Positions 837 to 27,800 of a DNA stretch of 64,000 bases are shown here, one piece after another. The stretch covers positions 15,968 through 79,967 of IMG/VR virus record IMGVR_UViG_3300026292_000006, one strand, 5' to 3'. Positions within the stretch are counted from its first letter, which is position 1, and every line of letters starts with the position of its first letter. The notes beneath the pieces were generated by a model. The model ran no database searches, was not told where the DNA came from, and saw only the letters and a list, made by a program, of their open reading frames with translations. Both the position numbers and the translations under genes were made by a program. The stretch comes from a virus.

Positions 837-842
837 TATTTA
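837..842 (-). promoter_or_regulatory. T4-like late promoter (CTAAATA)
   Basis: TAAATA 5 nt upstream of the ATG at 831, overlapping the stop codon of the giant gene. Confidence 0.6.
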
Positions 843-3800
843 GATGTCATCAAAGATTTGTGTTGGACTGAAGTTGGAGATTACAGTTGCACCAGTCTGG
901 ACTGTTAGGACAGCAGATAGTGAGTAAACTGGGGTTGCACCAGATGCTGTGATAGCGACTCTGTATTCATCACCATCATCATTTTGTGCGGTATTACCTG
1001 TGTTATAAGTTGCTTGGTTAGCACCAATAATGTTGCTCCATGTTTGTGTGCCATACTCTTTCTTCTGCCACTGATAATTCATTGTCTCATCGTTAGTTAC
1101 AGTAGAAACAACTGTGAATCCAGCAGTCTGACCTTGGTTAACAGTTACGTTAACTGGGTCTGTAGCGATTGCGATTGTGCCAGGAGTAACTCCACCACCC
1201 TCTTGTCCTTCTGGACCTTCGCCAGCGAGAACGTCAAATCCACCGTTGATAGGACTACCAATAGGAGGTGTCCAATCGTCTGGGACTTCGTTATCAATTG
1301 CAACAACAGGAGACTGGTAACCAGTACCAGCAGTCTTAACATCAACACGAGATACACCCATAAGTGCCTTCAAGCGAGCATCAAATCCAGAGGAGGAGAT
1401 AACGTCAACGTTAGGACGTGAGGTGTAACCATCACCAGGATTGGTTAGTACTGCGTTAGTAAGTTGACCAGATGTTATGTTAGCAAGAGCAGCAGCATTT
1501 CTACCCTTAACAGATCCAGTGTATTCAAATGTGATTAAGGAGTTAGAAGACTCAATTAGAGCAACTTCTCTGGAGAATTCTTCACCCTCTATATCGAGGT
1601 TATCACCAGCTTCGATTGGTGGGACAACAGTTGCTGCGATAACGTCTGCGTCACTACCAATGTATGAGAAACCAACGAATGTTGCACCGAATCTTGGGAC
1701 TTCAGCGAAGATGATACGTGAACCAACAATCTCGTATGCGATACCTGGTTCCTGAATAATACCGTTGAGTGAAACGATAATATTATTCTCAGGACGGATG
1801 ACGTTAGAGGAAACACCCTCAGTCAATGTCAAGGAGTAGAATAGACCTTGACGCTTGAGGTTGAAGGAAGATCTCAATGAGTCAAACTCGAAGGAGATGT
1901 CATCTAACTGACGTAGTTTACCAACATAGTAACCGATGTATTGTGAACCAATTACAGGTGGCTCAGTAAACTGAATCTTATCAGAGAATGCAACGTATGC
2001 ATTAGTTGCACCTGGAGGTTGTAGAATACCATTAACAAATGCGAGTAAGTGACCAGCAGGGTCTGGGAAGTATGCTTCACCATTAGCAACAGTAAGGTCA
2101 AATGTAGTTTGGACTCCATCGAATCCTCTGAAGTACCTATTAACACGACCTTCAAGTGTGCGAGCAGATGAAACGGCACCACCCCATCCATCATCAGAGA
2201 TGATACTCATATTATCTACGAATTCACCAACTGCATCTTCTACCCAAATAGTAGCAGTAATACCTTGTTGCTCGATAGCAACAACCTTAGCGTAAGATGA
2301 GAAATCAGTAGTTGTGTAACTAGAAACACCAGCATAGATTGATGGGAAGTTAGACCCAACAACCAACTTACCAATGTTATTATTGGGGTCAGTTATCTCA
2401 GAGATAGGAGCACCAATTCCAACTGGAACTAGATTACCAATCCAAAGTTTGTGAATACCATTATCAGGGTCATTAGTATACTTGGTTACAGTTGCATGGA
2501 ATCCTGGATTCTTCTCTGTTGTACCTTGTAGGAGGATAACCTCATCACCAACGTTGAATGTGTCATTAACACCAGTATCAATAATAGCAGTGCCAAGGTT
2601 TAATTCGTAAACTGCACGACCGTGGACAAACTGGTTAAGTTGAATCTGTGTTCCACTGATACCCTTAACATCTAAGATGTAAGAAGTAACACTACCGTAA
2701 ATAACGTCTCCAGGAACCCATGGATCCTTAATTGTTTCAACGTCAATTGTGATACGACCACCAGTGTTACCAGTTAGACTACCAGACTTATTAGCAAATT
2801 CAGAGATATAACCCTCAACAGAAGAATCTCTATCGAAGAACCAGTCACCCTGATTAAAGCTTCCCATCTTAAGATTTGTGAAGAAGCGATCTGATGAACT
2901 GTCAACAGTAGCAGTAGTGCCACTTGTAGTACCTTCAAGGACATCATTCTGGTTAATTGCTCCTGAGATTGTATGAATCTTCAAGAAGGATGTGCCTGTC
3001 TCACTAACTGCACCTGCTTGTAATACAAATCCTTTATTGGTTACTGCACCCTGAACCACAACCTCTTCACCGTTAGTGAATGTCTGATAAACAGAGTTAT
3101 TTTGTGACTGATTAGAAGTTACAAAGTGAGTAAAGATTTGTCTGATGTTTGCTGCATTCATTGTGATAGCAGATATCTCAGCAGAAGCATCAGATGTGCC
3201 TCCGAAGATAACATCAGCAGGGTTGAATCCACCTTGAATTGGAGTTACAGATGGGTCTGATGGATATGTAGGAGCAGTTCTATTAATACCACTACGTCTT
3301 TCAACAGCAAATATTTGAGCACCTGAGTTAGAAGTATCTAACTGGAAGGTTCTGAAACGTCCATCATGAATTGGTGATACACCAATCTCAAACCACTCAG
3401 CAGTAGCAGTCAAGCAATAGAAGTATGGTTGAGTTGCTAATCCTTGTAAGGATGTCTGAGATGCAGGGATGTAACTTAGTATGTCACCACGTCTAAAGTT
3501 GTTAGCACGATTGATACGGACTCTATATTCTGCTCTTTCAAATCCAACTTCAACTTCTGGAGTTAGTAGGACAAGTGCAGGGTCTGTATTCCAATCCTTA
3601 CCTACTTCATACTTGTTGCTTAGGTTAACAACGTCAGTAGATGAGATGAATTGGATTCTTGCTTCAGTAGCAAATGTAGATCTTTCAAGAGCAAATTCAA
3701 TTGGGTTGAGTGAAGAGTCAACCATAAATTCAACAGCTTCCTGATTCCACTCGAATCTATCGGTTGGAATGTATACATCATAGTTTGCCCATACAGCATC

Positions 3801-6800
3801 AGATGTATGGAGATACATTACAGACTTGATATACTCACGAATGCGAGTTAAGCAATACAAGATGTGAGATCTAGTTGTTGTTGGGAATGCAATAAATGTG
3901 CCTTCTCCATCAAACCATCCTTGAGATAGTTTAAATGCACCAGCATTACCACCAGTTACCAAGTCATATCTAACTGCCTTAAGGACATCGAGTGCGAAGT
4001 CAATAGTTAAGTTAGTAGTTGGATACTGTTGTTGTGTCTCAGTGAATGCTCTCTGTGATATAGATTGAGTGTTAAAGAGTAAGACATTAGCAACACGCTT
4101 CTGGTTAACCATTCCAGCACCAAGAGTATGAGTCATGATGTCGAATAAAGTCTCAGTTGCAGATGTGCAATCGTAACAAGTACCTGCTTGATATACTGTA
4201 TTTCCGTTGTATGGGAATGTCTTAGTTACACTAGCAGTTAAGTAGTTAACATTATTCTCTGCTGCCTCTCTAATAGTATTGATAAAGATATCAGTTAGGG
4301 TGCTAAGAGCAGATGCAGATTCTGGGCAAGTTTGATTCCAGTTACCAACTTGTCCTGATCCACCATTATTAGCATCCCAAGTAACAGACAAGTCTCTAAC
4401 AACAACATCAGGTGTATACTTGATAGGCCAACAGATTGGCATCTGATATGCACGTCCATTAACTATACCAGGATTCTGAATACCATCAGTAACAAACTGA
4501 ATTAGAGAAGTAATTTCACTTTCAACATTAGATGATTCTGTACCTGTATAGTTGTAATCAACAAGTCTTCCTCTCCAGTATTCTAGTTTTGTGCTAACTG
4601 GGTAAGCCCATGAGTTAACAGCAGTAATAGGTAAGACTCTATCATCTGCATAGTCAGTTGCACGTGGATAATAATGATTAGTTGCATTCTGGTCACTTGT
4701 GCAAGTGAATACAATTGACCTAGGAGCAAGAGTAATATTGTCATTCTGAGTCAATGTATGACCAACAACAGTAAGTGTTAGGTCACCTGTTACAGGATTA
4801 TAGTAACCATCTGTAGGTGTTAGTTGTACTCCACTATCAACAACAGTGATAGCATTTGAAGCACCAGATACCCATGTGTGTCTGTAGTCACCACCCTTGA
4901 TAACAGCACCGTTGATAGCAGATACAAATGTATGTGCATAACGGTTACCAACTCCACCAATACCAACGTTAATTGTAATAGTACCAGTCTGTTTCTTAAC
5001 TCCACCAGTCTTAGCAGCCACGAAGGTATGGTCAGACTTATCAGGAGATTTACCCATGAATAAGTCGAATGTAGTTGCAGTGCAATTGCTGACTGCTAAC
5101 CATTCATCGCTACCAGGATCAGTTGCTCTTGGATATGCATGGATAGACTCATTGTCATCTCTATCACATGTCATATGAATTGCACCATCTTCCAACCAGA
5201 CATAAGTATTTGCTTTCTCAATACCATTTGAAGTAGCAGATACAAACTTATGGTCGTAGTTACCACCACCAATCAATACTCCAGGTATTGCACTGACAAA
5301 TGTATGTGCATACTGATTATTTGCAGCAGCAACACCAACGTCTAATGTAATCCAACCATTCTGTCTGTGGACACATCCTGCAACAGCAGAATCAAATGTA
5401 TGAGTAAAGTCACCACCAACCTTAACAGCACCAGAGGTTGCAGATACAAATCTATGCTCTCCGAGGTAAGTAGCAGCACCAACATCGATAGTAATTTCAG
5501 AATCCTTCCAATGAATACCATCAGTAACAGCACTTACAAAGGTGTGTGTATATTGACCACCACCTGATACAGCACCAACTGATGTACCACCAGCCCAGTT
5601 GTGGACTGAAGTATTAGAAGACTTACCAATGTTAATGGTAATAGTATGACCAGTTACAGAATGAATAGGAAGTGCAGTGTCATAATATGGATCCTTCTTA
5701 TGAGTAATTCCGTTAGCAGATGCAGTTTGGAATGTGTGAGCAGTTACGTTAGTTGAAGGAATAGTATCCAATACAACTACGTCAAATGTATTAGTAGTTA
5801 CGTCACGAATCTGAATCCACTTACCGCTAATTGGGTCACTGCTACGTGGATAAGTATGGTCACTACCATTACTATCCTGCATACATCTGAATGTCAGTGA
5901 ATTATCAGCAATCTTAATCCAATCATTTTCATTGTATCCATGACTTGCAACAGTCAGTCTCAAACGACCTGTATTTGGATTGTAATCAGCAGCAGTAACT
6001 GTAGACTGAGTAACTCCAGCAGCACGAGGATATGTATGAGTAGTAGAGAAGTTGTCCTGAGCACACTTGAATGATAATCCATCATCAACAAGTTTGACGG
6101 AAGATGTTGCTCTATGAAGACCATTAGCAACTGCACTTGAGAATACATGAGTATGCTGACCACCACTGATTACACAGTTTTGTGCAGATGCAGTGAGGAC
6201 AAAGTTATGTGCAGTAGTATCTGTAATAGCACCCTGTCCACCGTTAACGTTGAGTGTTATGGTTGTGCCAGTTACAGCAGTGATTGTTATTGCAGTGTCA
6301 TAAACATAGTCACTACCACCAGTACCAGTTGCAGCTGATCCAGCAGCACGAGGATATGTCTTCTGAGTTGTGTTACCGTCACCATTGTAATCACAAGTGA
6401 ATACTAAGGAATCTGCGACGAGTTTAACACTCTCATTAACCTGTAGATGATGGTCACCGATTGTCAAGACCAAATCACCACTTGTAGGACTGTAAGTAGC
6501 GTTAGTTACACTGAATGTTTCTTGAGGAGTGTTACCAACATATACATCAAATGTATTGGTTGTTATATTCTCAACATCTACCCAAAGGTCTGCTAGTGGG
6601 TCACTAGGACGTGGGTATGTTTTGTTAGAAATATTACCATCCATTCCACAGTTGAAGCTGATGCTATCAGGTGTGAAATGTACTCTGTCACCAATTACAA
6701 AACCGTGGTCTGGGACTGTAACAGTCATCATACCAGTTACAGCATCATAAGTTGCACCTGTAATAGTATGTGCAGAAGCAGACCTGAATGGATGAGGACC

Positions 6801-9800
6801 TATATCCAGAGTCATTAGACCAGTGGTAGGCTCATAAGTTGCATCACTTACGTTGTAAGGTGCAAGAGGAGTTGCTCCAACATTTACATCAAAGTTATTA
6901 CCAGATACGTTGGAAATCTCAAGATACTTGTTAGATGCAGGGTCAGTGCTACGTGGATATGAGTGCTGAGTAGCATGTCCATCCATATCACAAGTGAAGA
7001 TAATGGAGTTATCTGCTAACTTAATCATATCCCCATTACTGAATGGGTTGTTAGCAACAGTCAGTGTTAATACACCAGTAGTTGCAACGAATGATGCAGC
7101 AGTTGCAGTATACTTAGCATCTCCAGTATTCTCAATTACGATTGAATGGTCATATGCTCTGTCACGCTTTTGCTTAATGCTACTACCTACAGCAGACTGG
7201 AAGGCATGTGTATAAGCACCACCAGACTTGAATGCTGCACGTTTGATAGCACCCTTATGAGCACGGATAAATGTATGAGCAGAAGTATTAGTAGAAGGAG
7301 TCTTATCGAGAACCTTAACACGGAATGTGTCAGTAGTTACGTTATCGATAGTTAACCATGTGCCAGATGAATAATCTGTAGGACGTGGATATACATGCTC
7401 AGTAGCATGTGAATCCTTATTACATGTAAAGACTAAACTGTAATCCTCAAACTTAATTGCTTCACCGTTTGCCATACCATGATTCTCAACGGTAACAGTC
7501 ATAAATCCTGTTGTGCCATTGTAAGAAATAGCAGTAGGTGTTACACCAGCATGCTTAATGAATGTATGAGCAGTTGTGTTGGTAGAAGGAGCACTACTTA
7601 AGATATTGAAGGAGATGCTACCTTGCTCAACAGCAGTAACTGTTACTGGAGTATTATATGCAGGGTCAGAAGTCCTTGGATATGCATGTAAAGTCTGATG
7701 ATTATCTTGAGCACAAGTGAATACAAATCCTTCCTTAGCAATCCAAATCTTCTCACCAACCTCAACGTTATGAGGTCCTGTGATGACCTTCATCACACCT
7801 GTAGATGGGTTGTAATCAACATCTTGTGGGTCGTAACCTATGAATGGAGTCTTACCAACATTCACATCGAATGTATCAGTTGTTACATTCTTAAGTTTTA
7901 ACCACTTACCAGATACAGGGTCAGAGGAGCGAGGATATGTATGGTCAGATGTATTACCATCAAAGTCGCAACGGAAGGTTAATCCATTATCATCAATCTT
8001 GATTAATGATCCATCATCAAGACCATGACCTGCAACAGTAAGAGTTAGATAACCAGTATCTCCATTATAAGAAGCATTGGTTGCAGTATGAGTATCAATA
8101 GTTGTGCGAGGATATGTATGGTTGCTACCGAAGCTGTCCTGAGCACATGTAAATGTTAGAGAACCATCTGCTAACTTGATATTCTGACCAGACTTAAGGT
8201 TATGAGCACCAATGTTAAGCTTTAACTTACCAGTATTAGGATCGTAATCTGCATCATTAACATTCTTAGTAGTATTAGCAGTTGTGCCAACGTTAATTCT
8301 AATAGTGTTAGCATCAACAACACTCAATTCTCTCCACTGTCTGCTAACTGGGTCAGATCCACGTGGATATGCTTTAGCAGATGAGTTACCATCCATTGTG
8401 CAAGTGAAGAGGATTGAATCATCCTCAATCATTATCTTGTCACCAGCAGAGAAACTATGACCAGTAATTGTTAGGTCAAGGTTACCGTTAGATGGTGTAT
8501 AAGATGCACCTGTTGGAGTATGGTGTGTTACACCATTGCTGATAATCTTAAGAGACTCCTTATATGCAGGGTCAGTTACACGAGGATAAGTATGCTCAGT
8601 AGCATTACCATCCATTGAGCATGTAAATGTTAATCCATCAGTAGCAAGTGAAACAGTATCATTTGCCTTCATAAAGGTTGCAAGAAGGACACTGTTTGTA
8701 GCAGCAGACTTAAATGTATGAGCAGTTGTGTTAGTAGATGGAGTGTTATTTAATACTTTAACATCAAATGTATCGTTAGTTCTAGCTAAGACTTTCAACC
8801 ATCTATCGTTAGCTGGGTCAGTCTTTCTAGGATAAGAGTGATAAGAAGCACCACTATCTTGCTGACATGTGAATGTGACAGCACCCTCATGAAGTTTGAC
8901 ATAGTTACCAATATGAATTCCATGATCTGCAGAAGTGATAGTCATCACACCTGTTGATGGATTATATGCAGCATCAGTAGGAGTGAGGTGAGTAGCAGAT
9001 ACAAACTTATGGTTATAATCACCACCTGTGTGGATTGCACCAGAGTTAGCACTTACAAATGCATGAGCATAGTTACCACCAGCAATCACTGGAGTTAATC
9101 CAGCAGTACCAACGAAGATATGTTGTGTCTGGTTAGAAGACTTACCAACGTTAACACGAATCTTACCAGTCTGATGGTGAATACCATTAGCATCAGCAGA
9201 TACAAATGTATGATTGTATACATCATTAACACCAGATATACCAACGTTAACATCTATAGTAGTTGCCTGAGCATTAGAAACTGTTAACCACTGGTCAAAT
9301 GTTGGGTCAGTGACACGTGGATATGTGTGGTTAGTAGCGTTGTTATCCTTATCACATTTCAGTGTAATAGAATGAGGAGCAATCTTAATTCTGTCTCCAT
9401 TAGACACACCATGAGATGCACCAAGAGTAATGGTCATTACACCTGTAGTTGGGATGTAATTTACATTAGTTGCTGTCTTTCTCTCACGAGTTACATCTTC
9501 AACCTTGATTGAATTCTGATAATATGGGTCAGCACCAGCAGTGATTGCTAAATCACCAGAGTAGTTAGAACCAGATGCTCTAGGATATGTGTGGTTACTA
9601 CCATGTCCATCCTGAGCACAAGTAAAGATTAGAGAATCATCGTCAATTCTGATTGAATCACCATCTCTCCATACAGCGTATGTGTGGACAGAAGATGCAG
9701 CAGCAGACTGGAATACGTGAGTTGTTACGTTAGTAGAAGGTACGTCAAATAAGACTTTAACATCAAATGTATTCGTTGTTACATTCTCAATAGGAATCCA

Positions 9801-12800
9801 CTGACCAGATACAGGGTCAGTATTACGTGGATATGGATGATCTGATGATTGACCATCTTGGTCGCAACGGAAGGTTACTGCATTATCATCAAGTTTAACT
9901 CTATCACCTTCAAGTAAACCATGACCATTAATAGTCAGAGTCATGATACCTGTTGTTGGGTTGTAACCAGCGTTAGTTGGAGTTAGAGCATTTTCAGCAA
10001 CGAATGAATGGACGTGGTTTCCACCAGTCTGCACACATCCACTAGCAGCAGATACAAATGTATGCTCAGTTGTATTAGAAGAAATACCAACCATCAATGT
10101 AACTGTGCCATCAGGTCTCTCAACACCAGAAGACTTAGCAGATACAAATGTATGAGTAGAAGTGTCTTGAGACTTACCTACATGGACATCAAATGTATTT
10201 TGATTAACATTAGAAATAGGTAACCACTCATGATGAGATGGGTCAGACATTCTAGGATATGCATGGTTGGTAGCATTACCATCCTTAGCACATGTAAATG
10301 TAATGGACTCAGGATCCATCTTAATCTTATCATTTGCTTTCCAGATACCACCTTGAGAACCTGAGCTGAAGGTGTGGACTGTATCGTTAGTAATTGCATT
10401 ATGTCCGAAGAAACGTCCAGTTGTGATATCAAAGTAATCACCTGTTACGTTATGGACAGTTACCCACTTACCGCTAATTGGGTCAGTGCTACGTGGATAG
10501 GTATGAGTTGTAGAATTATCATCCTTCTCACATCTCCAAGTAACAGCACCATCTGTAAGCATGATTTTGTCTCCATCATGCAATCCATGACCTTGGACAA
10601 ACAGGGTCATGACACTGGTTGTTACATCATAACTTCCATCAGTAGCAGTCATAGTAGATGGAGCAGTAAACCCATGATTAGGTACTGTCAATGTCATTAT
10701 ACCCAACTGTGGGTTATAAGCTGCTGTAGTTACTGTATGGAGAGATGTGCCAACTGAATGGACTGGAGTAGGTTTGTTATAAACTGGGTCAGCACCACTA
10801 TTAAGAGTGTAGTTAGAACCAGATGCTCTAGGATATGTGTGGTTAGTAGCATGGTCATCCTGAGCACAAGTAAATGTTAGAGAGTTAGTTTGTACTTTAA
10901 CTGCATCACCACCCTTGATGATGTTTCCTCTATGAATACTATTAGCAACAGCACTCTGGAATACATGAGTAGTTGTGTTTGTGCAAGGGACATTCTCTAG
11001 GACTTGAATACTGAAGTTAGTATTAGTGCAATTAAATACCTGAATCCACTTACCTGAAACAGGGTCAGTAGAGCGAGGATATGCATGGTCACTTGCTTGA
11101 CCATCTTGGTCGCAACGGAATACTACTGCATTATCAGAAATCTTAATGTAGTCACCATCTGAGAGGTAGTGAGTACCAGAAGTGATAGTCATCACACCAG
11201 TTGCTGTATCAAATGTAGCACCTGTAGGTGTAATGCCAGTCTCAGGAATGAAGGTATGAGCAGACTGGTTAGTAGATGGGACAGAATTCAATACTTGGAC
11301 ATCAAATGTATCCTTAGTAACGTTAGTAACATCTAACCACTGAGTTGCAGCAGGGTCACCAACACGAGGGTAACGGTGCTCACTAAACCCACCGTCAAGG
11401 GTGCAATTGAAGTTGATAGAATTCTTAGCAATCATAACTCTATCACCATTGCTGAATCCGTGGTCAACAATAGTAAGAGTCATAATACCCGTAGTTGGGT
11501 TATATGCAGCACTTGTATTATGATGTGTCTCAGGACCTTTCAACCAGTTGTTGCCCAGAGTCATCTTCATCAAACCTGTAGTAGGTGTGAAGTCAACAGC
11601 AGAAGGAGTTAAATTAACGCTAGTTGACATACCAACGTTAACATTAAATGTATTTGTTGTAGATCCAGTTACAGGTAACCATTGTCCAGCAACAGGGTCT
11701 GTAAGTCTTGGATATGAGTGCTCAGTTGCATTACCATCCATGTCACATGTAAAGGTCAAGCTGTTAGGCTTAATCTTAACCATGTCACCATTACCAATAT
11801 TATGTCCATTAGATGTGATGGTCATAATACCAGTAAGAGGATTATACTGAGCATTACTTACTGGATATCTGCTACGTCCACGTAAATCATGATTACCAAT
11901 ATGTAATACTAAGTCACCTGATAGAGGATCGTAATCTGCATCTGTTGGTGTGAAATTAACCTGAGGTGTAGTACCAACATTAAGAGTAATACTATTAGAA
12001 GTTGTGCCAGTAATTGCAATAGGCTCATTATGTACTGGGTCAGTTATCCTAGGATATGGGTGAATGGACTTATAGTTGTCCATTGCACATGTGAAGTTAA
12101 GAGAGTAAGGTGTAATCTTAACGTGTGTACCAGTGCTTAATTGGTGAGCACCAATAGTAAGAGTCAACTCACCAGTTGCTGAATTATAAGAAGCACCTGA
12201 TGGTGTGAAATGTTTGATAGGAGACTCACCGATATTAACCTCGAATGAATCCTCAGTAGCATTCTCTACTGCCAACCACTTACCACTTGCAGGGTCAGTA
12301 GACCTTGGATATACGTGGTTAGTATAATGGTTATCCATGTCACATGTGAATGTCATGGAGTTATCCTGAATCAGGATCTGGTCACCATTACCGAATCCAT
12401 GCTTAGAAGCATGAATCTTAAGCATACCTGTTTTAGCGGTAAACTCAGCATCAGTTGCTACATGGTTAGTTGCCTCAACAAAGTTATGGTCACCAACATC
12501 AAGCATTAATTCTCCAGTTGCTTGGTCGTAGGTAGCATTAGAGACATCATATTCTCTCTTAGCAGTTTGACCAACTTGGACTTTAAAAGTATTGAGTGTT
12601 ACTTCTTCAATTGCTAACCACTGGTCGCCAGCTGGATCCTTCTCTCTAGGATATCCATGATTAGACCCATGATTGTCCTGAGAGCATGTGAATACTAAAG
12701 ATCCAGTATGAATCTTAACTTGGTCACCAGTACTGAATCCATGTCCAGGAATAGTTACTTCAAGAATACCACTGTCAGGGTCATAGTCAGCATCAGTTGC

Positions 12801-15800
12801 AGTATGAGTTGTAGAATCAGCGAAGTTATGACTTGGTACTGTAACTGTCATTACACCCGAATGTGGGTTGTATGCAGCATCAGTAGGAGTGAATGGTAGA
12901 ACTCCAACATCAATAATATCTACTGCTGTATTACCAACAGGGTCACCAGAGCGAGGATATGAATGATTAGTAGCATTACCATCTTGTGTGCAACTAAAGA
13001 TTAAGGAATTAGTCTTAAGTTGAATCTTAGTATTATTAGTAAAGTCATGTGAACCAACATTCAATACTAGGTCACCAGTGCTTGCATCGTAATCAGCATG
13101 TGATACATCGTATGCAATCTTAGGTGTAGGTCCGACATTAACAACGAATGTATTAGTCTGTACTGGCTCTCCGTTTGGACGTGAGCTGGTAGTAACACCG
13201 AATCCAGCATAATCTGCATCAGCAAAGATACCACTACCACCAGTTAAACCAGTGTTAGTCTGACCAGGTGTAGTTGCTTCACCAACAGGGGTGCCATCAA
13301 TCCACATCTTAACACGTCCTGGACCAGTACCGATGTCACCACCAACACGAATCTCAAATGATATTTCGTGGTCACCACCATCAAAGTAAGATGTTAGATT
13401 ACTAATTTGTAGGTCAAGCATTGCAAGACCAGTATCTGATGTATAAGAAGCACCACCAGAATATGAATTTGTTGCAGTACCTGCACGAAGTCTTAGATAT
13501 GTGCCACTGTCTCTGATACCTAACCAAACACCAGAAGTTGCACTACCTGCTTCAAACAATGTGCAATCTACAGGAGAGGAACTTGGAAGTGTAGTTACAA
13601 GACGGAATACAGCATCTTCATCAGGTGTAATACCAATACTACTATCTGAAGTGGAAATATTAGATTCACCGAAACTAAAGTCTCTAGTTAGGCTATTATT
13701 CATAGTGGTTGTAATACCACCACCTCCACCACCAGCACCTTGTCCAGTACCAGCTGGGTTAGAGATAAACAGTCTGTTAGTAGGCTTAGGTGTTGCGTCG
13801 TAGAATCTTTGATTTACTGAGTGACCAGCATTATTAGTAATAATCTGATCCTTCATCGCACGGATTGCATATTCTTTTGCCTTATTAACAATCCATACAG
13901 ACTCAGTTGCCTGAGATGTTACGTGTAGTAAGTTACCACCAGAGTTAACATAGAATTCTGTACCATACTGTAGGTAGTTGTTTCCACCATACTTAAGGTT
14001 GAATACCATTGCACGGAGGATATCAGTTACGTCATGGACGCAGTTGATAGGACCACCAGGAATGTTTAACGACGGGAATTGTTTAGTGCCTTCTGCAACC
14101 GCTTGTTCAGCAATATAGCGTATGTTTCCATCAATAGCATCTCCACAAAGTTTATAAACTTCTTCTCTAGGATTCTGCTCATAAGTTTCTACAGGTTTGA
14201 ATTCTGGGTTACCCTCATCATGGTAGTCTCTACCTAATGCATTACGCATTACAAGAGCACACATATCACGAAGTAGTTTAACTACAGTGATAGATGCTTC
14301 CCATTCACCTTCGATATGCTTAAGTGAGTTATCCTCTGTTTCGATATACAATGCAGCAGCATCGTATGTTTTCTCGTTACAGTCATACTGTATATCATGA
14401 CTGATAGAATCAATCATGTCAAGTACGTCATCCTCACAGTTAACAGCCCCGCCAGGAATGTTGAGTCCTTCAAACTTAGAAAGGTCATTCATGACTCCAA
14501 CAACTTCTTTAGCAATGACGTGCTTGTTACGTTGAATCATTTCAACAGCATCAAGGAATCTGTCATTTTGTGAGCGAGTTGCATAAGGGAATCCTTCATC
14601 CTCAATTACAATTGTGTCATCTCTATATGCAGTATTAGTTGTGTATAGTGGTGAATAGTAATCCTCCTGAACTTGAGCAGGAACTCCAAACTCAGCAGCA
14701 ACTTCACCTGGAGATAGAAGAAGGTTATTAAGTGCCTTCATGCAAAGCATCTTGGCAAACTCAATAGCGTCAAGCATAGGATTAATCTCATGCTCAACAT
14801 GTAAAATGTTCTGGTTGGAATCTAGGTAGTTATCGATGACATGTTGTGTCTGATAAGTACCACCTGTGCAAAGGTCATTAATTACAGCTGGGAGAATATG
14901 GTCTTTAATATCTCTCTCACAATATGGTTGACCATATCCAGGCATTTCAAGGAAATCATAATTAGTAGAATTGATTGTCTGCTGATACTTGTTCTGAATA
15001 TACTCAGCAGTTTCTTCTGCAATATAATCTCTATTCTTCCAGATCAAGACACCTGAATCTCTAAACCTAACATCGTTAGGAGCAACAACTTCAAGTAAAT
15101 CTCTACCTAATGCTTTAATATAATCCTGTACCGCAGTAGATGCAGGTGTAGAGAAGTTATTAGGTACTCTTAATTTACTTGTGTATGTACCAGCAAGATC
15201 TGAGCTTGTAGTTGTCAAGACTGTGATACAAAGGTCAACAACTTTATCCCATGTATACAATGCTTGAAGCACTTCTTCCTGAATGTGATCTAACTTACCT
15301 GAAGCAGTTAGATAAGTCCTTGCAGTATAAAGGGTATGATAGTTTCCACCTTCATGAAGGTCTTTAATGATAGCACCTAAGATGTAATCTTTAGTGTCTC
15401 TAATACATGTATTGGTACCACCGTAGAAATTAGAAGCAGGATCGTCACCTCTAATTGTAAAGTCACTAAACGTAGCCTTCATCATACCAACTGCTTCTTC
15501 AGCAATCCAAGGACCATTAAGGTCAAGGATATCTGCACAGTTTCTATATTCTTGACGACCTAAGTCAACATCTTCAATAATGATATCACGCTCATCATAA
15601 TCAACTTTCTTAGCAGTAGCAGAAGAAGTATTCTGTCCAGTGTAAGTTGCATATACAGAAGTTGTAGATACAATAAATGGTGCTTCACCATCTAATCCTA
15701 GGACAATATTAAGTTCGTTAGGATCAAATTGATTAGAAGGTGTAAATCCAGAAGAGTGGTCAGCAACACCTTTCTTAACGTAGAAGTTATCAATATGTCC

Positions 15801-18800
15801 AGTCCATCCACTTAAAGTCTGGAATGACATTCCAAGCCAGAATGGTGCATATTGGTAATCATTATTATCAGTCCAGTTAGCACCAACTTGAGCACCGTTA
15901 ACATATGCCTGAGTAACGTTAGATGATCTAACAATCTCAATATGATACCAAGTACCAGTTGTAGTGAATACGTTAGTAGAAGAGATACCTAAAGTTGTGC
16001 CATTATAAACTTTTAATTGTTGTCCATCAAAACGGACATTAAGTCCAGAGTTAACATCAAGACGACGTAAATCAAACAGATATTGAGTACCAACGTTAAC
16101 TCCTGGTCTAAACCAACCAGAGATAGTAAAGTCACCTGTACCGAAGTTATAATCGTAACTATCAGCAGCAGCGATATATCCAGATGTAGGAATGTATATT
16201 GACTTAGTTCCTGTCAATTCTGGTTTCTTAACAATCACAGACTGTGTTACAGCACCTTGGACTGTTAAGGTAGAATTGGTAATAATTTCATTTAACTGGA
16301 AGTTTCCAGTGATACCTGAGGTAAATATCCACTTAAGACCAGAGTTAGCACCAATAGAAGTAGCACTAGCACCAGATGTTACACCTTTAATTACATCACC
16401 AGTAGCAAACAATCCAGTGGACTTATCCTTATATGCAAGTTTTGTAGTTCTTACAGTCTCACCATCTTGGAATGTACCATCTGTGATGCTTGCAAGTGCA
16501 TTAACATTGGTAAGGTTACCAGCAGTCATTGCAGTAGTTGCAATACCAGCTAAGGTGTCAATATAGGTCTTAACGTTTGCACAGTTAGCAATATCCTGAT
16601 TATTACCTGTACCGTAGTTTGCATCGTAACGATGTGCAGGAGCAGTACCACCAGAGTAAGTAGTTGGGTCATTTAAGTTATATCCAATACCACTTAAATC
16701 CTTCCAATACATCAAGTTATTGATAGCACGTTTCGCCAATTCTGCTGCTTGTGTGAAAGCATGAACTGCTTCTGCTTCTTCACCAACAATACCGTTAGTT
16801 AGAGGCACACCAGCGTCATCGAAGAATTTCTTAGTGAATTCAACAATATTAAAGTTACCACCAGATCCAAGGTCGTTAGCAAGAGCATCAATCATATAAC
16901 CAAGGTCACGACGACACTTCTCTTGGTGAGGTGAATATGTGCCTTCTGTTTCATCAGGCAATTCACCAAGGTTACCATTAGTAAGAGTAGTCTCTACAAT
17001 ATTCCATAAAGTAGTAACTGCTGCTTGGACATCAGAGCAATTGTTAGCATCGGTATTTGAAGCATTACTACCGTTTGTACCGTAATCATCGCCAGGTGAA
17101 GGGTCAGCAGTAATAGTAGTGTCTTGATATGCAGTCCAAGAGTCACCAGAGTTTACAGCACTGATTGTTCCTGAATACTGGTTAGCAAGAGCAGCATTCA
17201 TTCTATCAGTCGCTTTTTCGTAAGCAAACTTAGTTTCTGCACTTTGGCCATTGATGTATGTGAAGGTGCCATTTACATCGAAGTACTGCTGACAGAACTT
17301 ACGAGTATAGCGGTTACCACCTGCATACATGTCAATTGCTAATGCATCAACGAAATATTCAATATCTCTCTTACATTTTGCATCTGAAGGAATAGAAGAG
17401 CTAGGATACTGCGTCTTCATATCATCAAATGCCATTCCAGCAATCATTGCTTTATTCTTCTGAATTAAGCGATATGCGTCTTTAAATCTACTCCAGTTGT
17501 TAGTAATAACATCTGAAGGGAAATAATAGTCAGGATAGTCAATTGCAATGCTTGCTTCGGCAAAATCGATGATTTCTTGCTTATTATTAGCAACGTTACG
17601 TTTTGCGTCTAAAAATCTGTTTCCAGCGATTCCGTGGAATGTAGAAACGGGGTTTCCATAATCTACGTCTTTAGAAACGATTCTATCGCCAACTTCGATA
17701 TTTCCGTTAGCAAGATTGGTATAAGTGATTTCTGTAGTTCTTACTTCTTCAAAATCAAGGAAATCAGCGTTAATACGCTCTTCATCATTATAAAGCTCTG
17801 TAGGAGTAATAGAAGACTGTGAAATGTCATCTAGGATAACATTTGGATTTTCAAGACTTACAAGACGCTCAAACAGTAATCCGAAGAAAGTAGACCCTCT
17901 ATTAATGATTAATTCGTCAACAACCTCAGAAGTGATAGGATCAACGTATGGAGAGATAAATGTAATCTGTCCAGCAATCTTAGAAGATGCAGAGTAGATA
18001 TACTCGTTAAGTTTAAGATCAAAGATACCAGTCTCAAATTTAGCAGTACCTGAAGTCTTAGAAACAACTAGACGGTCATTTACAACACCATCGACAACGT
18101 TAGTCTCTTCAATGATAGCAGTGTCACCTTCAAGGTTAGTAACACTTTCACCGAATCTAAAGATAGTTTCAGTGTTAACTAGAGTTACAGATTCAACTAG
18201 AGCAGAGAAGATTTCACCTCTTACAATTTCTTCGTTAAGTTGGAAGGTACCAGGACCGACATTAATAACATCAATATGATTCAATCCTGAATCAATTACA
18301 GTACCAAAAGCATCAGAGAATACACCTTGGACTGTTTGTCCTAAAGTTGGGAAAATACCGTAGTTAGATCCACCACCAGAAGTGTAAAGTGCAATTCTGT
18401 AGATAGGTGTAGGAGTAACTCCTAAGATTCTATAGTTAACTTTAGATGCTGGTTTAGGTGGCTCAGAGAATACTAAGTTAGGACCAACAACTTGATAAGA
18501 TTCACCAGGTGCCTGAATAACACCGTTAAGTGTAATCATCAACTGATTCTGTTGGACAATTACTTGCTCACCTTCAACAGTAATTGGGAATTGCTTGTCT
18601 ATACCATTAAACTGTGGTGAAATATCATCTAATTTCTTAACAATAGAAGTTAAGATTTCCTCAGAAGATGTCAAACGCTTCTTACGGAAGAGAACCTCGG
18701 TATTGTTGTAATCAGTATAGATTGGTTGTGCAGCACCAAATGATGTGATTTGGTTTACATTACTATAGTTGTTAATGTTAACCTGTTTAGTAAACTCAGT

Positions 18801-21800
18801 ACCAATCTTACGTCCAGATACGTCCTTACCACCAGTCAGTTGTAACTGACCAAACATGTTGAAACCTGCTGGGTGGTTATTCTCAAGGACTTGAGTTTTC
18901 CACTCAGTAATTGGTGTTTCAGACTTAACAACATAAGAGAAATTCTGATAGAAGAAACTATCTTGAATCTTCTGGACAATCTCAGATGGTTTACCAATAT
19001 CATCGATGAATCTACCTGGAGTTTCAGTTAGAGAACCAATATTCAATACACCACGAGCAATACTCAAGTTATCGATAATACCAGATGCTTTAGAGATAAT
19101 ACCAGTTACCTTTTCACCTGCTTTCCAATCACCAGTATAATCAACAATCTTAAGAATCTTAGGACCTATTTGCCAACCAGTATTTGTAGAAACAATACCT
19201 GTAGCAGTAGAAGTTTCAACAGTAGATCCTTGGAATACTTCTTCACCTTCAAGGAATCTGGAGGTTTCTACAACAGCAGTTGCTTTACCACCAAATACTT
19301 CAGTAAGAAGTGTCTGACGACCTTCACCTTGAGTTAGGAAGGTAATATAATCACCAGCTTGTGCTGATTGTAAAGTAAGACCAAATCTTATCTGGTCAGA
19401 TTCAAGACCTGCTGCTTCACCAGCAATAGCATAGTAAACCTGTCCTTCAACCAAACTGGTTAAACCTGCGGTACTTGGTTTTGGTAATTCACCAACTGTA
19501 GTACCAATTGTATCTGCCCTAAACTGAACTTCGGCACCAGTTGTAATACCGTGCGGGAAGTTAAATTGTAGATAATTAAGGTCTAAGTTAACAACGTAGT
19601 TAAATTCTGATTTAAGAGTAACAGTTGGTTCAGAAGAGTAACCAGAACCAGGATTCTTAATGATAATCTCATTAAGACGATTATTCTTAACAACTGCTTC
19701 AGCAGAAGCACCAGATCCACCACCACCTGTGATTACAACAGCAGGAGTTGAAGTATATCCAGAACCTGGATTTGTGATAGTAATCTGACTTAGAATTGAA
19801 GTATTAAAGAGTTGTAAGTTAACAGGGAATGTAATCTCTGGTTTTAGAGTATAGTCATGAGAATAACCGAAACCAAATTCATTATTCTTCAGTCTCTTAA
19901 TCTTACCAATATTAGTACCTGTTAAGAATACAGATGCACCTGTGCCTTCTTCTGGAATAACAACATTAACTGCACCACCAGAACCTGCTAACTGACTACC
20001 CAATATACCAGGAATAGCATCAATATCAATAGATGCAGTTGTATATCCTTTACCTGGGTCAGTTACAGCAACGTTGGTTAGTGTGCCAGATCCAACAGTA
20101 TCATCAACTTCAACGGTAACAGTACACTTAGCACCTTCACCATCTCCAGCGATAGGGACATCATAGTAAACACCTGGAGCATATTCAGTACCACCAGAGG
20201 TAATAACAACCTTCTCAATCTGTCTGAATGATGCAATGTCACTAATGATAGGTAACTTCTGATAGAAACCACCAGCAGATACCAGTTTAATACTATTGAT
20301 AGGTCCAACTGCTCTTAGAGAAGTAGTTGAATAATAGGAATATGGATTATCAAATTCGTCGTTAATTATTTCAGCTGATTGTCTCTCTGGCTCTTTAAGT
20401 AGAGGGAATTTGAATTCAGTATCACTTACAATCTCAGAGATTGCAAAGGTACCATCGAAAGGAGTTGTGATAACATCGATGAATGAATTCTCCCCAACAG
20501 GTGAATTAGCACCAACCCTAGATGGGTCAAAGTAGTAAGAGATATTAGTTACATCACCCAATACAGAGAATTTAACGAATGGGTAAGATCCACCACCAGA
20601 AGGAACACCAGGAGTACCAGACCTTTCAATGTTATTGAAAGAGTATTCTAGTTTATACTGGTTATCTTGAGAGAATGATAGGTAATATCCGAAGTTAGTT
20701 GTATCAGAGATATCAAAGACATACTGATGACTTCTAGTAAATTCTAATGTAGGATGCTTCGCATATATGTTAATGTTACTAATAGCATTAGCATTAAATG
20801 CAGGATCATCTAGTGCAACTTCTCTAATACCAAATGTAAATTCTCTAGTGCCAATTACTTGGTCAACAAAGAAACTACCATTGAATTGTAAACCTTGGAA
20901 TCCTTCAGTGAATAGAATATCACCTACTTTAAATCCATGAGCACTATTTGATGTGCAATAGATTTGATTAGTTCTGGCCGTTGCTGTGCGTATGAGGTCT
21001 TTTTCCAGACGAGCAGTAACAGTTATCTTCTTAACTGATGCAAACCCAGAGATAACAACACTCTTCTCATCTTCAGCAACAGTAACGTTACCAGAGTTAA
21101 GACTTACAACGTCTTCTGGAATATAAGTTGATCCAGGATGAATCTCTTGAATTTGGACTGAATAATTATTACCTTGGTCATAAGGAAGATGTCTTGTATA
21201 AGTGGCAATGGATTCGCTAGTAGAAACGTGACTCCAAGTTACACCACCATCTGATGCATCTCCAGTATCATGAACAGGTGGTGTAGTGCCAGCAACTCCA
21301 GCACCACCCGATGCAACGGTATAAACGTTTAGTTTATGCCAAACTTTTTGTCCTTCAACATATAGAAGACCACTATCCCATTCAGGCATATCCATGCCAA
21401 GATACTGAGGACGTGGATAAGGATGCTGAGTTAAATCAATAGTAAACTTACCTGCATCATCAATGAATGCCCAGTTGATTACGCCATCACTCTGGACACC
21501 AGCAGTATGTTCTGGAGTAATAGTACCAGAAGTACCAGCACCTTGTGCTTCGTAAATCTTCTTATCACTGTATACTCTATCACCCTGAGCATATGCTGTA
21601 CCTGCTGCCCAAGGAGATTCAGGCTCTTCAGTATTGAAATATGTACCAGCAATCTGGTTAACATCACCAACATCAGTCCTATAACGGTCTGTGTTATTGA
21701 ATGTACCGTAAATCTTACCAACTTTATACTTGGTGCCAACACCAGGATTTAATAGAGTTCCTGTTGGAACTTCTACAATGGTGCCATATGCTTGAGTTAC

Positions 21801-24800
21801 ACCAGCTGTGTTGAATTGTTGGATAATAGAACCCTTAGTCAACTTAATATCTTGACTGAAGGTAAACTCCATTACATTATCAATCTTCTGATACAATGCA
21901 TCACGCATGTAGAACTTACTGATTACATCAGCAGTAATGAGTAACTTCTTACCTTGTGGTGAAGGAATAGTAGAAGTCTTAGATGCATATTGATATTGTT
22001 TCTGCGTTAATGTGTATGTGCCAGGAATATAAGTGGAAGGTGCCTGAGACATATCCAATATCTGAAGACCACCAGGACCTGCTTCCCATAATGTAATAGC
22101 ACCAGCACTGAGAGCAACCCATGTAGTTTGAGTTGAAATATCAGTTAGAGCAAAATTAGTATACTTATCAATTCCAGTAGCAGTATATGATCCACGACGA
22201 CTGTGAAGTCTATCAAACTTAACTAAAGCAATATCAGAATCAGATGTGGTTACTGGAAGTTGGTCAGAAGGCATTGTATATGCAGCAGTAGCATATGGTG
22301 CCTTATCATCAACTACAAGGTCATCAATCCAACCAATGAATGAGTTACCAGCTACAGGTCCAGAATACTTACCAGCAATGGTCATATCCTGTAAACTAAT
22401 ATCAGATGTGCTCTGATAACTTACTTGTTGGTTACCATTAATGAATACTTCATAACGGTATAAACCAAGTGACTCTTCTCTCTTCTGGAAGGTTACATGA
22501 CACCAAGCAGCACCTGCAAATGCAGTCCAGTTAGTAGCAGAGGTAGAAACTGCAACCTCAACACTATTAACGTATAATACCCATTTCTCGAAGTTTGCAC
22601 TATTTGAATCTCCATCAAGCTCAACTTGAATAGAATCTCCAGCAATAGGAGTTAAATCAAAGAATATTGGTTTGGTATTCTGTGCAGACTGTTGTGCAGT
22701 TGCTAGAGAGAACCAACCTTGGAAAGACCACTCAGGATTTTGAAGATTATAACCTGAAAGTTTAATTGGGCAAACTGCACTTAGTTTTAGTGCGGAAGTA
22801 CCAAATCTGTAGAATGATGTATCTAATGATGCATCAGGTACAGAATAAATGTTGAATGTTGCTGTATTCTGCTTAGTGTTATCAAAGTCAATATCACCAG
22901 CAGTATCAAAACGATATGATGCTAATTGGTCAGATTGCTTACGATTAAGAGTAACAATGCAATCACCAGAGTTATCAACAACATGGTCTTTTGCTTGCCA
23001 ACCAATGTTGACTGTATCATCAACTTTAGTTTCTGAGATAATACTACCATCATACTTCATGTAATGGATGATAGAATAACGCTGATTCTGACTCTCTACT
23101 ACATCACTGATAAGAGTATAGTTGCCAAATACGTCAACACTAATACCAGCATGATTGATTGAATCAATACTACCAGAAACAGTAACAGTCTTAGTCCATT
23201 CCCATTGAGTATTAGCAGTTGCTAATGGGAATTTATTAATTTGAATGCTGTCAAACTTAGCAGCACCATTATCATAGATGTCCCAAATAAGGACAACATC
23301 TTGATATTCGTCAATAACGAAACGTGGATTTCTTACATATCCACCAGTAACAGGGACTTGACGAATCCAACTAATTTCAATGTTTGCACCATCATAATAG
23401 AAGACACCAAATAATACATCATTATTTTCTTTGTTGACACCGACAAACATAAAGTTGTCATCAGATATCCACTGAATTTGATGTAATTCCTCATCACCAT
23501 CCTCAGATGCAATCTTACGTTTCTCAACTAAGTCTCCATCCAAGTCACACTGGATAACCCACATATCATTAGGATCTGGTGAGTTAGAATCAGTATAACC
23601 TGCAAGGTAGATATTCTTATCTTGGTCTAAGCAGATAGAAGTTACCCAATCTCTACGGGTGCTACCAGAGATACCTGCAATTGCTTTCTGCCATTTGAGG
23701 ATACCATCAGGAGCATTAGCATTATTAAATCCAGACTCATATAGACCCATCCAAACATCAGGATTGAATGTAGCATTGTTGGGGTCATAATAATGTCCTG
23801 TGACATATATCATGTCATTCTCAAGACTTGAATCAAGATGCATTCTTGCAAATTCAAGTTTCTTCTGACCTACGTTTTGAGGTATTAGAGTCCTTTCCCA
23901 AATGAGCTGACCTAGGTCATCAAACTTGGCAAGGAATGCTGCCATATCACCATCAGTCTCAGTGATACTACCGCAAATATAGGTATATCGGTCAGGTGAT
24001 TGAATTGTATGATGTACATTAATTGTACCAGTTGCCTCATGGTATTCAGACAACCAATAACGAGTCTTTTTAAATTGCTGTGGATGTGATACTCTGATTT
24101 GAGGAGGATTATCTTCATCATAACCATTACCAGAGTTAATGATATTGACAGTTTCAACTTGACCTGTCATCTCACGTCTAATCTCTAGTTGAGCATCCTG
24201 TCCTTGAGGAGTGATAACCTCAAATGTTGGTGGAATATCTTCAACGTATCCACTACCTTCCTGAAGGACGTTAATTCTTTCAACACCTGCTACAACCTTA
24301 ACACGGTAGACTTTATTGGTGTTATCAATGACAGGACGTGAGTTAACAATAACTTCATCTTGTTGACGAAGCTCATGTCCCTCTGATGTAGTAATATGAC
24401 CATAGGGACGGTCACCAATCATCTCCTTATTATAAGAAACGATTTGTTGACCCTTAACAGATTCAATAAGTGCAGATGCACCAAAACCACCAGTACCTTC
24501 GTTATCGAAGAATACGGTGTCATTTACCTGATAAGATTCACCTGGATTCTCAACTACGAATCCGTCGATTTGAGCGTTTTCAAATTGGGTGGTTGTTTCA
24601 ACTTCGATGTCAACTCTGGATTCCGTTGATACAGAAGGAAAGTAATCGTATATCTGTAGCGTTGCCTCCTCCGACATTTCAAGAATTTCTTGTTGCTCAT
24701 CAGCATCAATAATTCCATCATTATTGGAGTCTTGAATTTCAAAGATTAAAGGATATCCTTCTATCTCAGTAGTAAGGACATCTGCTTCTTGGTTAGGTTG

Positions 24801-27800
24801 ACGGTCAACATCAATGTCAACTTCAGCAAATGGGTCTCTATAACGGACAACACCTGATGGGATATTCTCCTGAGTTGCAACTTGAGAGAAGTTCCAATCA
24901 TCTGGTAGTGAGTTAAACTGAGGACCCATAATATATGGGAATTGTGCTATACCTGCGTCACTACTGTCGATAGTGATAAAGTAGGCATATGTGCCCTCTG
25001 GATACTCAGGTGTTTTACAGAATCTACCGTTGTAATTGTCAAGGTCACCAGACTGGAAATCGTAATAATAGTCAGCAACAAACTGACCAGCAGGATAGGT
25101 ACTAAGTGATGGACCATCTATACGAGCAGGGTTAGGATTAGTTGTTTCATCATATACAACATTAGTCTTTAACTTATATGAGGTACGCATCCTTCTGATA
25201 CCACTATTCTGGTCAGTAGGATCGATATATCCATAAGGACCATAAATTGGGTTACCATCATAAGCCCAACCTATAATAGGAGAGTGCTTATAGTTGGATG
25301 CTAATTCTTGGAATTGTTGTGTAACAGGATTGAGGAATACGTTATCTCCAACAACATATCTCAATTCTTTAGGATCTGATAAGTGAGCATACTCACCACC
25401 AAACTGGTTGTTATATCCAGTGAATACATAACCACTTGCTATGTCATAATTGTCAGCAAGGTCAAATTCTAGGTTTCTATTCCACTGATATACAGTAGGT
25501 GTAAATGACGCTAATTGACCCACTGCTTCGAGTCTAACGGTGGTCATTCCTTGTGTATACCCAATACCCTTGTTGGTAATAGTTACACCTAATACACGAC
25601 CTTTATCTTCTCCGATTGTGCCGATAGTTGCTCTAGCAATAGCACCAAATCCATCACCATTAATAATGACATTAGGAGCAGTTGTATAAGAATTACCAGA
25701 GTTAATAATAGCGATAGATACGATTCTACCGTTAATAACGATTGGTTGTGCTAAAGCATTCTCACCAGAGTTAACTCTAACAGAAGGTAGAGAAGTATAT
25801 CCTGTACCTGGATTAATAATACTGATGCTAGAAATAGCACCTCTAACGTTTGCAGTTGCTTCTGCTCCAGTACCTCCACCACCTGTGATAGAAACACTAG
25901 GTTGTGATGTATAACCAGATCCTGGTTGCTCAACTAGAATTCTTGTTACTCTACCACCAGTAATAACTGCTTGAGCAGTAGCACCGATACCACCACCTCC
26001 AACAATGGATACTAGAGGTGATTCTGTGTAACCAGTACCTTCAGCAGTTACATCGAAACTTTGAAGACTACCATTAACTATAACTTCAGCAACAGCACCA
26101 GATCCACCACCACCTGTAATTTCAAGGTTTGGTTTAGCACCAGCGTCATATCCTTCACCTACTTCATCTACACTGATATTAGTGATAGGTCCAAACTGGA
26201 CATACTCTTTAGACTTGTAAGACCAGATAGAAACACCATTAACCCAAGCACCAATTGAGGTACCTGCTGCAACGTCTTTACGTTCGGAAATAGTCTGTAC
26301 AAGTCGTGGGAAACGAAGAAGTTTCCTTTGGTTACCAGGAATAAGTGCAGATCCTGTAAAAGGTCCTATTTTGTAGTTTGGAAGACCAGATGCTGCAACA
26401 TAAACGTATTCATCGTTAAAGAAGGAATTTTGGATGTTAGTAGTGAATTCACTAACAACTTTGTTGATTGAAGTAACAGTTGACTTACCTCTATTCAAAT
26501 CAACGGAAAGTAGGATATTTCCTTGAGGAATAATCTCTGTAGGAGTTGCAATCTCATATGAGAAGGAATATGCGTCCAAACGAGATGTAACGACAAATGT
26601 GCCATTATAAACAACTGGGTTTGCACCATAGATGGTTACAGTGTCTTCAACGAGTAATCCATGTGGATTATCGCAAACAATAGTCGCAGTTTGGTTATTA
26701 ACTCCTCCTGGGGTTACAGATGCAACTTGGATGAGTTTTTTAACGTTATATAACCAAGAACTCAATCTTTGGTCTTCTGCGGTCGATCCAAGGTTTGCAA
26801 CCTTCAATTTATCGCCTTTTAGGTAATAACTACCCGTATTATCCAATACAGTCGTTCCAGCTTCGGCAATACCCAAAATACGCAATTTACACTCTTGTGC
26901 AGTGCCTCTATTGGTATAAACGAAAATATCCGAGTAAATAATCGTACCAGGATCCCAATCTTCGACAAGTCCGTTTTTAGAGCGAGTACACTCGATAAAT
27001 TGGTTTAAAGACTTCTCTTTATACTGAACTTGCTCATCATCGTTAAGAATGATGGTACCATTCCTCTCAGGCCATCCAATAGTCGAGTCAACGGTAATAA
27101 TCTGCCCTGTAGTCGTTAATGGCTCTACAAGTTTGGTTTTGTAAGGAATTACGAAGGATCCTTCCAAAGTTTCTTCGGAAATCGCTAATTCGTAGATAAC
27201 ATCAGTACCTTCGATGATTGTGATGACATTTTCAATCAGAGCACTTGCATCTTTGACATTATTGTCTACTGGGTCGGTATATTGATTAACTTCAGAGTCA
27301 ATTAGGTTTGAAGGGTCTCCAGAAATCAATTCTGCCCTTAAAACGGTATCTACAACCCAAGTAGCGTGAGATGGACTAATAATCTCATCTTTTGGATAGT
27401 AAATATCGACTTCTTCACCAAATAGGATTTTAAAGAGGTATTGAGTCGCTAATTTAGTACCTTTTGAGATATAGAAGTCAGTAATATTCTTAATTACCTG
27501 AACTGGGTCAATTGACGTAAAATCAATGTCAATAGTCGGTAAATACTGTCTCCTAAACTTATCGAAGACTTCTTTGATGAATAAAGAGTCTAAATTGACA
27601 ACTGTCTGTCCACTATTATGATTTGACTGCCTTAGAGCAGCTTCACCAGCATAAATCTCGTTATGGAGGTTATCATAAGCAACAGGACCTGAAACTCCTC
27701 TAGAACACTCCAAGAAAGCACTAGGAGCATATCCTATACCCTCTTCTAGGATATCAAAACCAGTAACTTGGTCAAATCCTACATCTACCGATGCTCTTGC

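Follow-up and report, generated by a model that had tools for sequence, protein, structure and literature searches.

The window analysed here is a stretch of 64,000 nucleotides (nt) of viral DNA (IMG/VR record IMGVR_UViG_3300026292_000006, positions 15,968 to 79,967) that contains the baseplate module of a T4-like cyanomyovirus. On its minus strand, positions 840..29582 make up a single open frame of 9,580 amino acids (aa) that encodes a giant gp7-like baseplate/virion structural protein (P0001). Within this protein, aa 5472-8326 (nt 4605..13169) form a nested array of 27 units of ~100 aa, delimited by hidden Markov model (HMM) and pattern counts and by a stack parse, which very probably represents a tree of 27 homologous small beta-barrels built by recursive domain insertion. 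An initial annotation of nt 4615-13160, corresponding to aa 5475-8323, had already described this stretch as copies of one unit that are interrupted by further copies and resume later in last-in-first-out order. The balance of this grammar, its conservation, an insertion of whole units in an orthologue and the behaviour of the fragments in AlphaFold2 models suggest that the grammar reflects real folding. All the features of the array reported below lie on the minus strand, and residue i of the giant protein begins at nt 29582-3(i-1).

A complete unit is made up of five parts in the order A, B1, B2, C, D. Part A is a beta-hairpin with a His-Gly end, B1 ends in F-T-C ... H-x-Y-P-R, B2 has the form D-P ... 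W, C is a strand with a V-x-V-G end and D is a strand of the form H-x-F-x-S-A. HMMs for the whole unit and for its separate parts were built from five uninterrupted units, which are 41-59% identical to a sixth. The whole-unit HMM gave 36 matches, many of them partial (A only, B only, B-C-D, or C-D) and with profile coordinates that coincide with the parts of the initial annotation, and the separate HMMs recovered 27 A and 27 B1 parts at 14-58 bits, with 26 of the 27 A matches reaching at least 25 bits. Outside these HMM matches H-x-[FW] occurs 28 times; 27 of these occurrences are D parts and the remaining one falls on the Trp of a B2. The C parts were sought with a generic pattern for alternating-hydrophobic strands, which detected 27 of them together with one overlap and a single strand of a B2. 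The 27 A, 27 B and 27 D parts previously counted by hand are consequently found again, and 27 C parts can be added to them. Several positions are close to invariant: a His is conserved in 25 of the 27 A parts and in every D part, and B1 retains its Cys in 27, its Asp in 26 and its His in 24 of 27 cases. This set of one Cys and three His, contributed by parts A, B1 and D, may form a candidate metal site clamping the separate segments together.

The order of the parts was examined with a four-state stack parser, in which a unit is opened by A, B is accepted only where an A is open, C only after B, and D only after C, with D closing the unit. When the 108 tokens are read linearly, two errors and one open unit are obtained, all of them due to the outermost unit. 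Exactly one rotation of the 108 parts, starting at A 8253, parses with 0 errors, leaves nothing open and attains a depth of 12. The bracket-grammar parse that the initial annotation had proposed as a check is therefore balanced under one rotation, and the complete closure at a depth of about 12 that it had reported from a hand parse is reproduced automatically. Its idea that the outermost unit is circularly permuted agrees with the same parse, as the only valid rotation pairs the C part at aa 5479 with D 8235, A 8253 and B 8279. The C part of this root unit (13128..13169, aa 5472-5485) is the point of entry of the chain, which leaves the array after B2, at the end of the segment that contains the root D, A, B1 and B2 (4605..4898, aa 8229-8326). 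The orthologues L078, L016, L086 and L099 have the same 'C A B ... D A B' ends as the array.

The resulting tree has 17 host units, 10 leaves and six branch points, and its deepest leaf (10353..10658, aa 6309-6410) is found at level 12. The 21 insertion points fall into three classes: nine follow C, six follow A and another six follow B, either past YPR or past B2. The sites after A, after B, including YPR, and after C that had been proposed from the sequence are thereby recovered; insertions inside D, which had been proposed as well, were not seen at any of the 21 points. The earlier picture of a dendritic bush needs some qualification: the tree has six branch points, but its shape is mostly that of a long trunk and not of a dense bush. 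The type of each closing fragment fits what the open unit still lacks, namely C-D if the break is before C and D alone if it is after C. The two runs of closing fragments are located where they had been reported: the first (8994..9182, aa 6801-6863) reads C-D, D, D, and the second (4863..5699, aa 7962-8240) reads B2-C-D, D, C-D, D, C-D, D, B-C-D, C-D, D. The distances spanned by single units can be considerable: the A-only fragment of unit 5563 (12810..12905, aa 5560-5591) is separated by ~2,500 residues from the downstream B-C-D fragment that closes this unit (4995..5249, aa 8112-8196).

Several scenarios may explain such an arrangement. One possibility is that the array is a linear mosaic or solenoid in which each of the parts A, B, C and D is a small module of its own and folds together with whatever lies next to it in the sequence, the runs of D forming a sheet of their own and the balanced counts being a by-product of repeat copying. 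The two runs of closers do look like short tandem repeats, and there are DNA-level repeat families throughout the array, as this scenario would have it. Nevertheless, shuffled orders never parse: among 40,000 shuffles of the 48-fragment order the best had 8 errors and the median was 27, and the best of 1,500 shuffles with rotation allowed had 11. The fit between the type of each closer and the needs of the open unit is also difficult to reconcile with independent modules. Together with the structural models and the orthologue discussed below, these observations make a linear mosaic very unlikely.

The recursive tree was further evaluated with two AlphaFold2 models. The first covers a two-level nest, A / leaf / B-C-D (10125..10745, aa 6280-6486), and was made with an alignment of 30 rows, all of them examples of the same sub-architecture taken from related viral contigs. 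It has a predicted local distance difference test score (pLDDT) of 89.8 and a predicted template modelling (TM) score (pTM) of 0.81; the hairpin of the outer A reaches a pLDDT of 91-94, and the order of the strands is the same in the outer (split) and the inner (contiguous) units. The two-barrel model as a whole also matches independent BFVD models of proteins from other cyanophages, one with a TM score of 0.83 and a root-mean-square deviation (rmsd) of 3.3 over 221 columns, another with TM scores of 0.76/0.79 and an rmsd of 2.6.

The second model (aa 5987-6700, 714 aa, 25 co-linear alignment rows) was designed around fragments with and without their partners. It contains the closed five-unit subtree of unit 5990, which reads A / leaf leaf / B / [A / leaf / BCD] / C-D (10035..11624, aa 5987-6516), followed by the D-only closer of unit 5904 (9990..10040, aa 6515-6531), which is partnerless in this construct, one complete leaf and a partnerless B-only fragment. 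A richer alignment for this fold was dropped because MAFFT stacked almost all of the leaf rows on one unit and divided the two-level rows among the wrong units, with a risk of bias. The mean pLDDT of the model is 75.9, and its distribution follows the presence of the partners. Fragments whose partners are included are modelled at 79-85 (A 5990), about 80 with one loop block at 63 (B 6224), 86-93 (A 6281), about 83 (B-C-D 6415) and 77-90 (C-D closer 6486). The D-only closer, whose A-B-C part is outside the construct, is a coil with a pLDDT of 45-60, whereas the D parts that have their barrel in the construct all come out as strands, which argues against D segments that fold on their own as in a linear mosaic. 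The B-only fragment at 6640-6700, whose A and C-D are outside the construct, has a pLDDT of 41-71, although it is a close paralogue of the closed B 6224. The models support the view that the split segments are joined into the same predicted fold as an uninterrupted copy.

Some observations weigh against this interpretation or limit its reach. The orphan B fragment is partly covered by as few as 8-15 alignment rows, which may explain some of its lower confidence, and the comparison based on it is weaker than that of the orphan D because of this thinner cover. With a pTM of only 0.55 for the 714-aa model, how the barrels are placed relative to each other is uncertain. The contacts between split fragments were judged from confidence values, strand patterns and the superposition of whole models, and not from a contact map. 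Moreover, all the D parts resemble each other, as do all the A parts, and the pairing of closers with units follows from the topology and not from the sequence. Finally, when the most distant pair, the A-only fragment at aa 5560-5591 and the B-C-D fragment at aa 8112-8196, was predicted as separate chains of a complex, the ipSAE score was 0.45, against 0.01 for the best of 3 controls, a result in favor of the tree that is graded as weak support. The mark used for this grade is reached by 58 of 80 solved complexes and by 2 of 110 mismatched pairs, and those that reach it with a score of 0.60 or less comprise only 7 of the 80 solved complexes plus both of the mismatches that passed. In these runs, carried out with alignments made for this analysis, the contact agreement was at least 80% and the pLDDT of the partner at least 63.

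The weak association predicted for the two fragments as separate chains, well above the best control, would also be expected if the grammar were real but the barrels were completed between chains, the fragments of one gp7 copy pairing with those of others in a cross-linked network. The T4 baseplate contains several gp7 copies, and by analogy several would be expected per baseplate in this phage too. Yet, a strict last-in-first-out order is needed only for closure within one molecule, and the single-chain models close with high confidence, so that complementation between chains has very little chance of being the correct explanation.

The relatives of the array offer independent information on the reality of the tree. 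A tblastn search found the unit in 368 phage records, all of them marine Synechococcus and Prochlorococcus phages and related marine viruses, including the gp7 of P-SSM4. In 77 viral loci, the A count equals the B count in most proteins, with totals of up to 27. Since the pattern-based C and D tokens fit the window but misfire in divergent relatives, where they produce spurious parse errors, they were replaced there by a test restricted to A and B HMM matches. By this test, A-only and B-only fragments balance in 30 of the 39 distinct architectures and are off by one element in the other nine. One locus, L001, parses perfectly into 12 units even with the crude tokens.

The most informative relative is L078, a metagenome contig whose orthologue is 78.5% identical to the array over 2,921 aa. 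Once a 10-residue overhang at the N-terminal edge, due to the cut points of the sequences, is set aside, the only indel of at least 3 aa is a 334-aa insertion in L078, placed by global alignment exactly between C and D of unit 7104 (C/D junction at 5454..5477, aa 8036-8043). This insertion consists of three complete units arranged as [leaf][A / leaf / B-C-D], and at the insertion the closing D has changed from the contiguous form to the 'G-G-x-Y-x-H' form typical of D-only closers. The initial annotation had suggested that indels among orthologues might remove whole subtrees, and the one large difference found is such a balanced block, which a linear mosaic would not predict. L078 accordingly has 30 units, and the number of units in related phages ranges from ~6 to 30.

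The same alignment bears on whether the interrupted units are still folded. It could be argued that the insertions destroyed their hosts and that the split fragments are now non-folding linkers between ten leaves, given that only 10 of the 27 units are contiguous. Yet the identity to L078 is 85% for A-only fragments, 84% for B-only fragments, 89% for D-only closers and 80% for C-D closers, whereas intact leaves are 78% identical; split fragments conserved at 80-89% are therefore not decayed remnants. They also retain the invariant Cys, His and YPR residues and reach high confidence in the models that include their partners, and a decayed array is for these reasons scarcely credible. The recursive tree accounts for the parse, the two AlphaFold2 models, the orthologue indel, the conservation and the relatives alike, and the earlier proposal that every domain is folded from separate segments and bears daughter domains in its loops is favored by all of them, as far as the predicted structures can be trusted.

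Other relatives illustrate how the tree can vary. At aa 6018-6215 (nt 10938-11531) the array has two tandem complete units, where a more distant phage group (L002-L010) has a nested A-B-C [unit] D; this difference between tandem leaves and a nested pair indicates that the D strand can either precede or follow the neighbouring unit. Giant proteins of other cyanophages (L043, L046 and L067, and in part L036-L072) contain a nested module of four units (A-B-C, A-B-(C), A-B, A-B-C-D, then closers) that is present in four to six copies in tandem, which amounts to a super-repeat of small trees. In the array itself, DNA-level repeat families are spread over the whole length. Of the internal DNA repeats, the best one pairs window 9558-9663 with 10806-10911, at an offset of 1,248 nt and with 82% identity, and spans both 'YPRASGSNY' B fragments. 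The adjacent leaves 6115 and 6532 have B1 parts that are each other's best match, at 70%. This DNA repeat and this B1 pair hint that a subtree may have been copied into itself, an idea that is partly supported at the sequence level, since the other pairs that such copying predicts are not best matches.

How the recursive tree could have been formed and how it would be folded can be outlined as follows. With both ends of the unit side by side, a surface loop of another unit, at the positions that follow A, B1, B2 or C, could take up a whole unit or subtree with neither fold being broken. The host would then finish later in the chain, hence the last-in-first-out order. Through repeated insertion the non-leaf barrels would each come to be assembled from two to four chain segments, and each daughter would be joined to its parent by two connections. 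At the base of the tree, the root D would join the root A via a short linker. Since the chain enters the root at C and exits after B2, the whole tree would hang from the gp7 body by two adjacent connections, and the 2,850-aa array is itself one insertion in that body.

The tree would in consequence be a compact, doubly tethered and presumably protease-resistant appendage, most plausibly at the rim of the baseplate. If there are six copies of gp7 per baseplate as in T4, it would amount to 162 barrels per virion. It may possibly serve as a spacer or take part in contact with the host surface; the multivalent capture put forward in the initial annotation is likewise hypothetical. A bolder version would make it a self-similar dendrimer: a rigid tree whose barrels are stapled by metal, which would grow as balanced subtrees are copied into loops of the same tree and would work as a tunable multivalent organ of first contact, its size and shape (6 to 30 barrels) setting the reach or the host range of the phage. 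This version as a whole seems rather unlikely.

The genomic setting is that of a baseplate wedge cluster in which, on the minus strand, a gp25-like gene is followed by a gp6-like gene and then directly by the giant frame. The gp25-like baseplate wedge subunit gene (31668..32081) matches phrog_261 (E 3.9e-52) and the gp6-like one (29588..31666) matches phrog_219 (E 8.7e-201). The N-terminal 1,000 aa of the giant protein match phrog_701, 'virion structural protein', at E 0 and phrog_2885, 'baseplate wedge subunit', at 4.5e-116; the Pfam family Baseplate_wedge scores 26.2 bits in this protein, just under its cut-off of 27. The other Pfam matches in the giant protein are YHYH (aa 1395-1539), Laminin_G_3 (aa 4467-4602) and a beta-propeller repeat (aa 1972-2000). 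By eye, its translation also contains several runs of 'G-x-G-Y ... P-x-V' modules. Immediately upstream of the nested array there is a long helical region, and aa ~5300-5470, just before the array, have a jelly-roll lectin-like appearance by eye; a Pfam search of the flanks of the array (aa 5200-5480 and 8320-8700) gave no match, and a LamG-like domain as the host of the whole array would be conjecture. Upstream of gp25 are found a PAAR-motif-like protein (phrog_281, window 32355-32888) and a protein of 1,190 aa, one segment of which is baseplate-wedge-like (phrog_22792, phrog_719, window 32888-36460). A near-identity DNA search of the phage collection gave no match for this DNA.

The unit itself can be placed in a fold class. 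In the first model, the deepest leaf is a small closed barrel, and model residues 28-138 were compared structurally (VIA-align). The leaf superposes on the FCCH domain of Uba1 (4p22_B) with a Z of 8.0 and an rmsd of 2.4 over 78 residues, and on a barrel of the phi92 endosialidase (4hiz_A) with a Z of 6.9 and an rmsd of 2.4 over 77 residues at 20% identity; Z values of 7-8 are common for unrelated small barrels and support a fold class, not a family. The other matches listed for the leaf are EF-Tu domain 2 and FNR-type and phage barrels, and the nearest named ESM Atlas cluster is a viral E1_FCCH cluster (0.92). At the level of sequence the relationship fades: Pfam End_beta_barrel (PF12195) scores 17.5 bits against a cut-off of 35, the leaf alone matches no Pfam family even at E 10, including E1_FCCH (PF16190), and a sequence profile of the leaf against all PDB chains gives nothing better than E 1.4. 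Similarly, a Foldseek search of the PDB found nothing at E 0.001 or better. As a fold class, the unit would then be a small barrel like those of Uba1 FCCH and the endosialidases, which likewise occur as insertions in host proteins; what sets the phage unit apart is its F-T-C ... H-x-Y-P-R insert and its H-x-F closing strand.

Compared with known baseplate proteins, the giant protein occupies the same place as the gp7 of T4 and of cyanophages, after gp25 and gp6, and has the N-terminal baseplate-wedge PHROG matches. The gp7 of P-SSM4, annotated as 'baseplate wedge initiator', is 32% identical to the repeat region over 93% of the query. T4 gp7, with ~1,030 residues, is far shorter than the 9,580-residue protein of this phage. 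The recurring motif of the array is H-x-[FW] and not the His-x-His of the metal sites in trimeric fibres of the T4 gp37 and gp12 type. As regards the intertwined fibre or beta-helix form of the latter, the single chains of the array are modelled as closed barrels. For studies of cyanophage adsorption it represents a concrete and variable baseplate module.

No published description of a nested barrel array in phages was found in a literature search, and the closest parallel comes from Si3, an insertion in the trigger loop of the cyanobacterial RNA polymerase beta' subunit (RpoC2), whose crystal structure contains eight sandwich-barrel hybrid motif (SBHM) domains, of which four are discontinuous (PMC10895346). 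In a 2026 survey that covered 2.7 million domains, Si3 is described as a six-level recursive insertion and as the most complex case (PMC13114784), in line with the earlier statement that a 12-deep self-nesting had not been described. Si3 resembles the array in that one small beta domain is inserted repeatedly into copies of itself, several of the domains are built from distant parts of the chain, and the whole block is an insertion in a host polypeptide. The differences are also clear. Si3 belongs to a polymerase, while the array, judging from its gene, belongs to a virion baseplate protein. The fold and the family probably differ too, the top structural matches of the leaf being FCCH, EF-Tu domain 2 and endosialidase-type barrels, with no SBHM chain among those listed, an absence that does not amount to an exclusion. 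A conserved Cys/His set, a circularly permuted root and a number of units that varies between related phages are found in the array and not in Si3.

Recursive self-insertion of domains has thus far been represented by one well-studied case, and the phage array extends it to a protein of the virus particle and to a domain outside the Pfam families. The differences between relatives, close or distant, consist of whole units placed at fixed loop sites, so that the family constitutes a natural experiment on the limits of discontinuous domains and on the growth of such trees, and the array provides an extreme test case for structure predictors and protein designers. With 27 units (30 in L078) and 12 levels against the 8 domains and 6 levels of Si3, it triples the number of domains and has twice the depth of the deepest published case found: it is the same kind of architecture, made of a different domain, in a virion protein and nested deeper.

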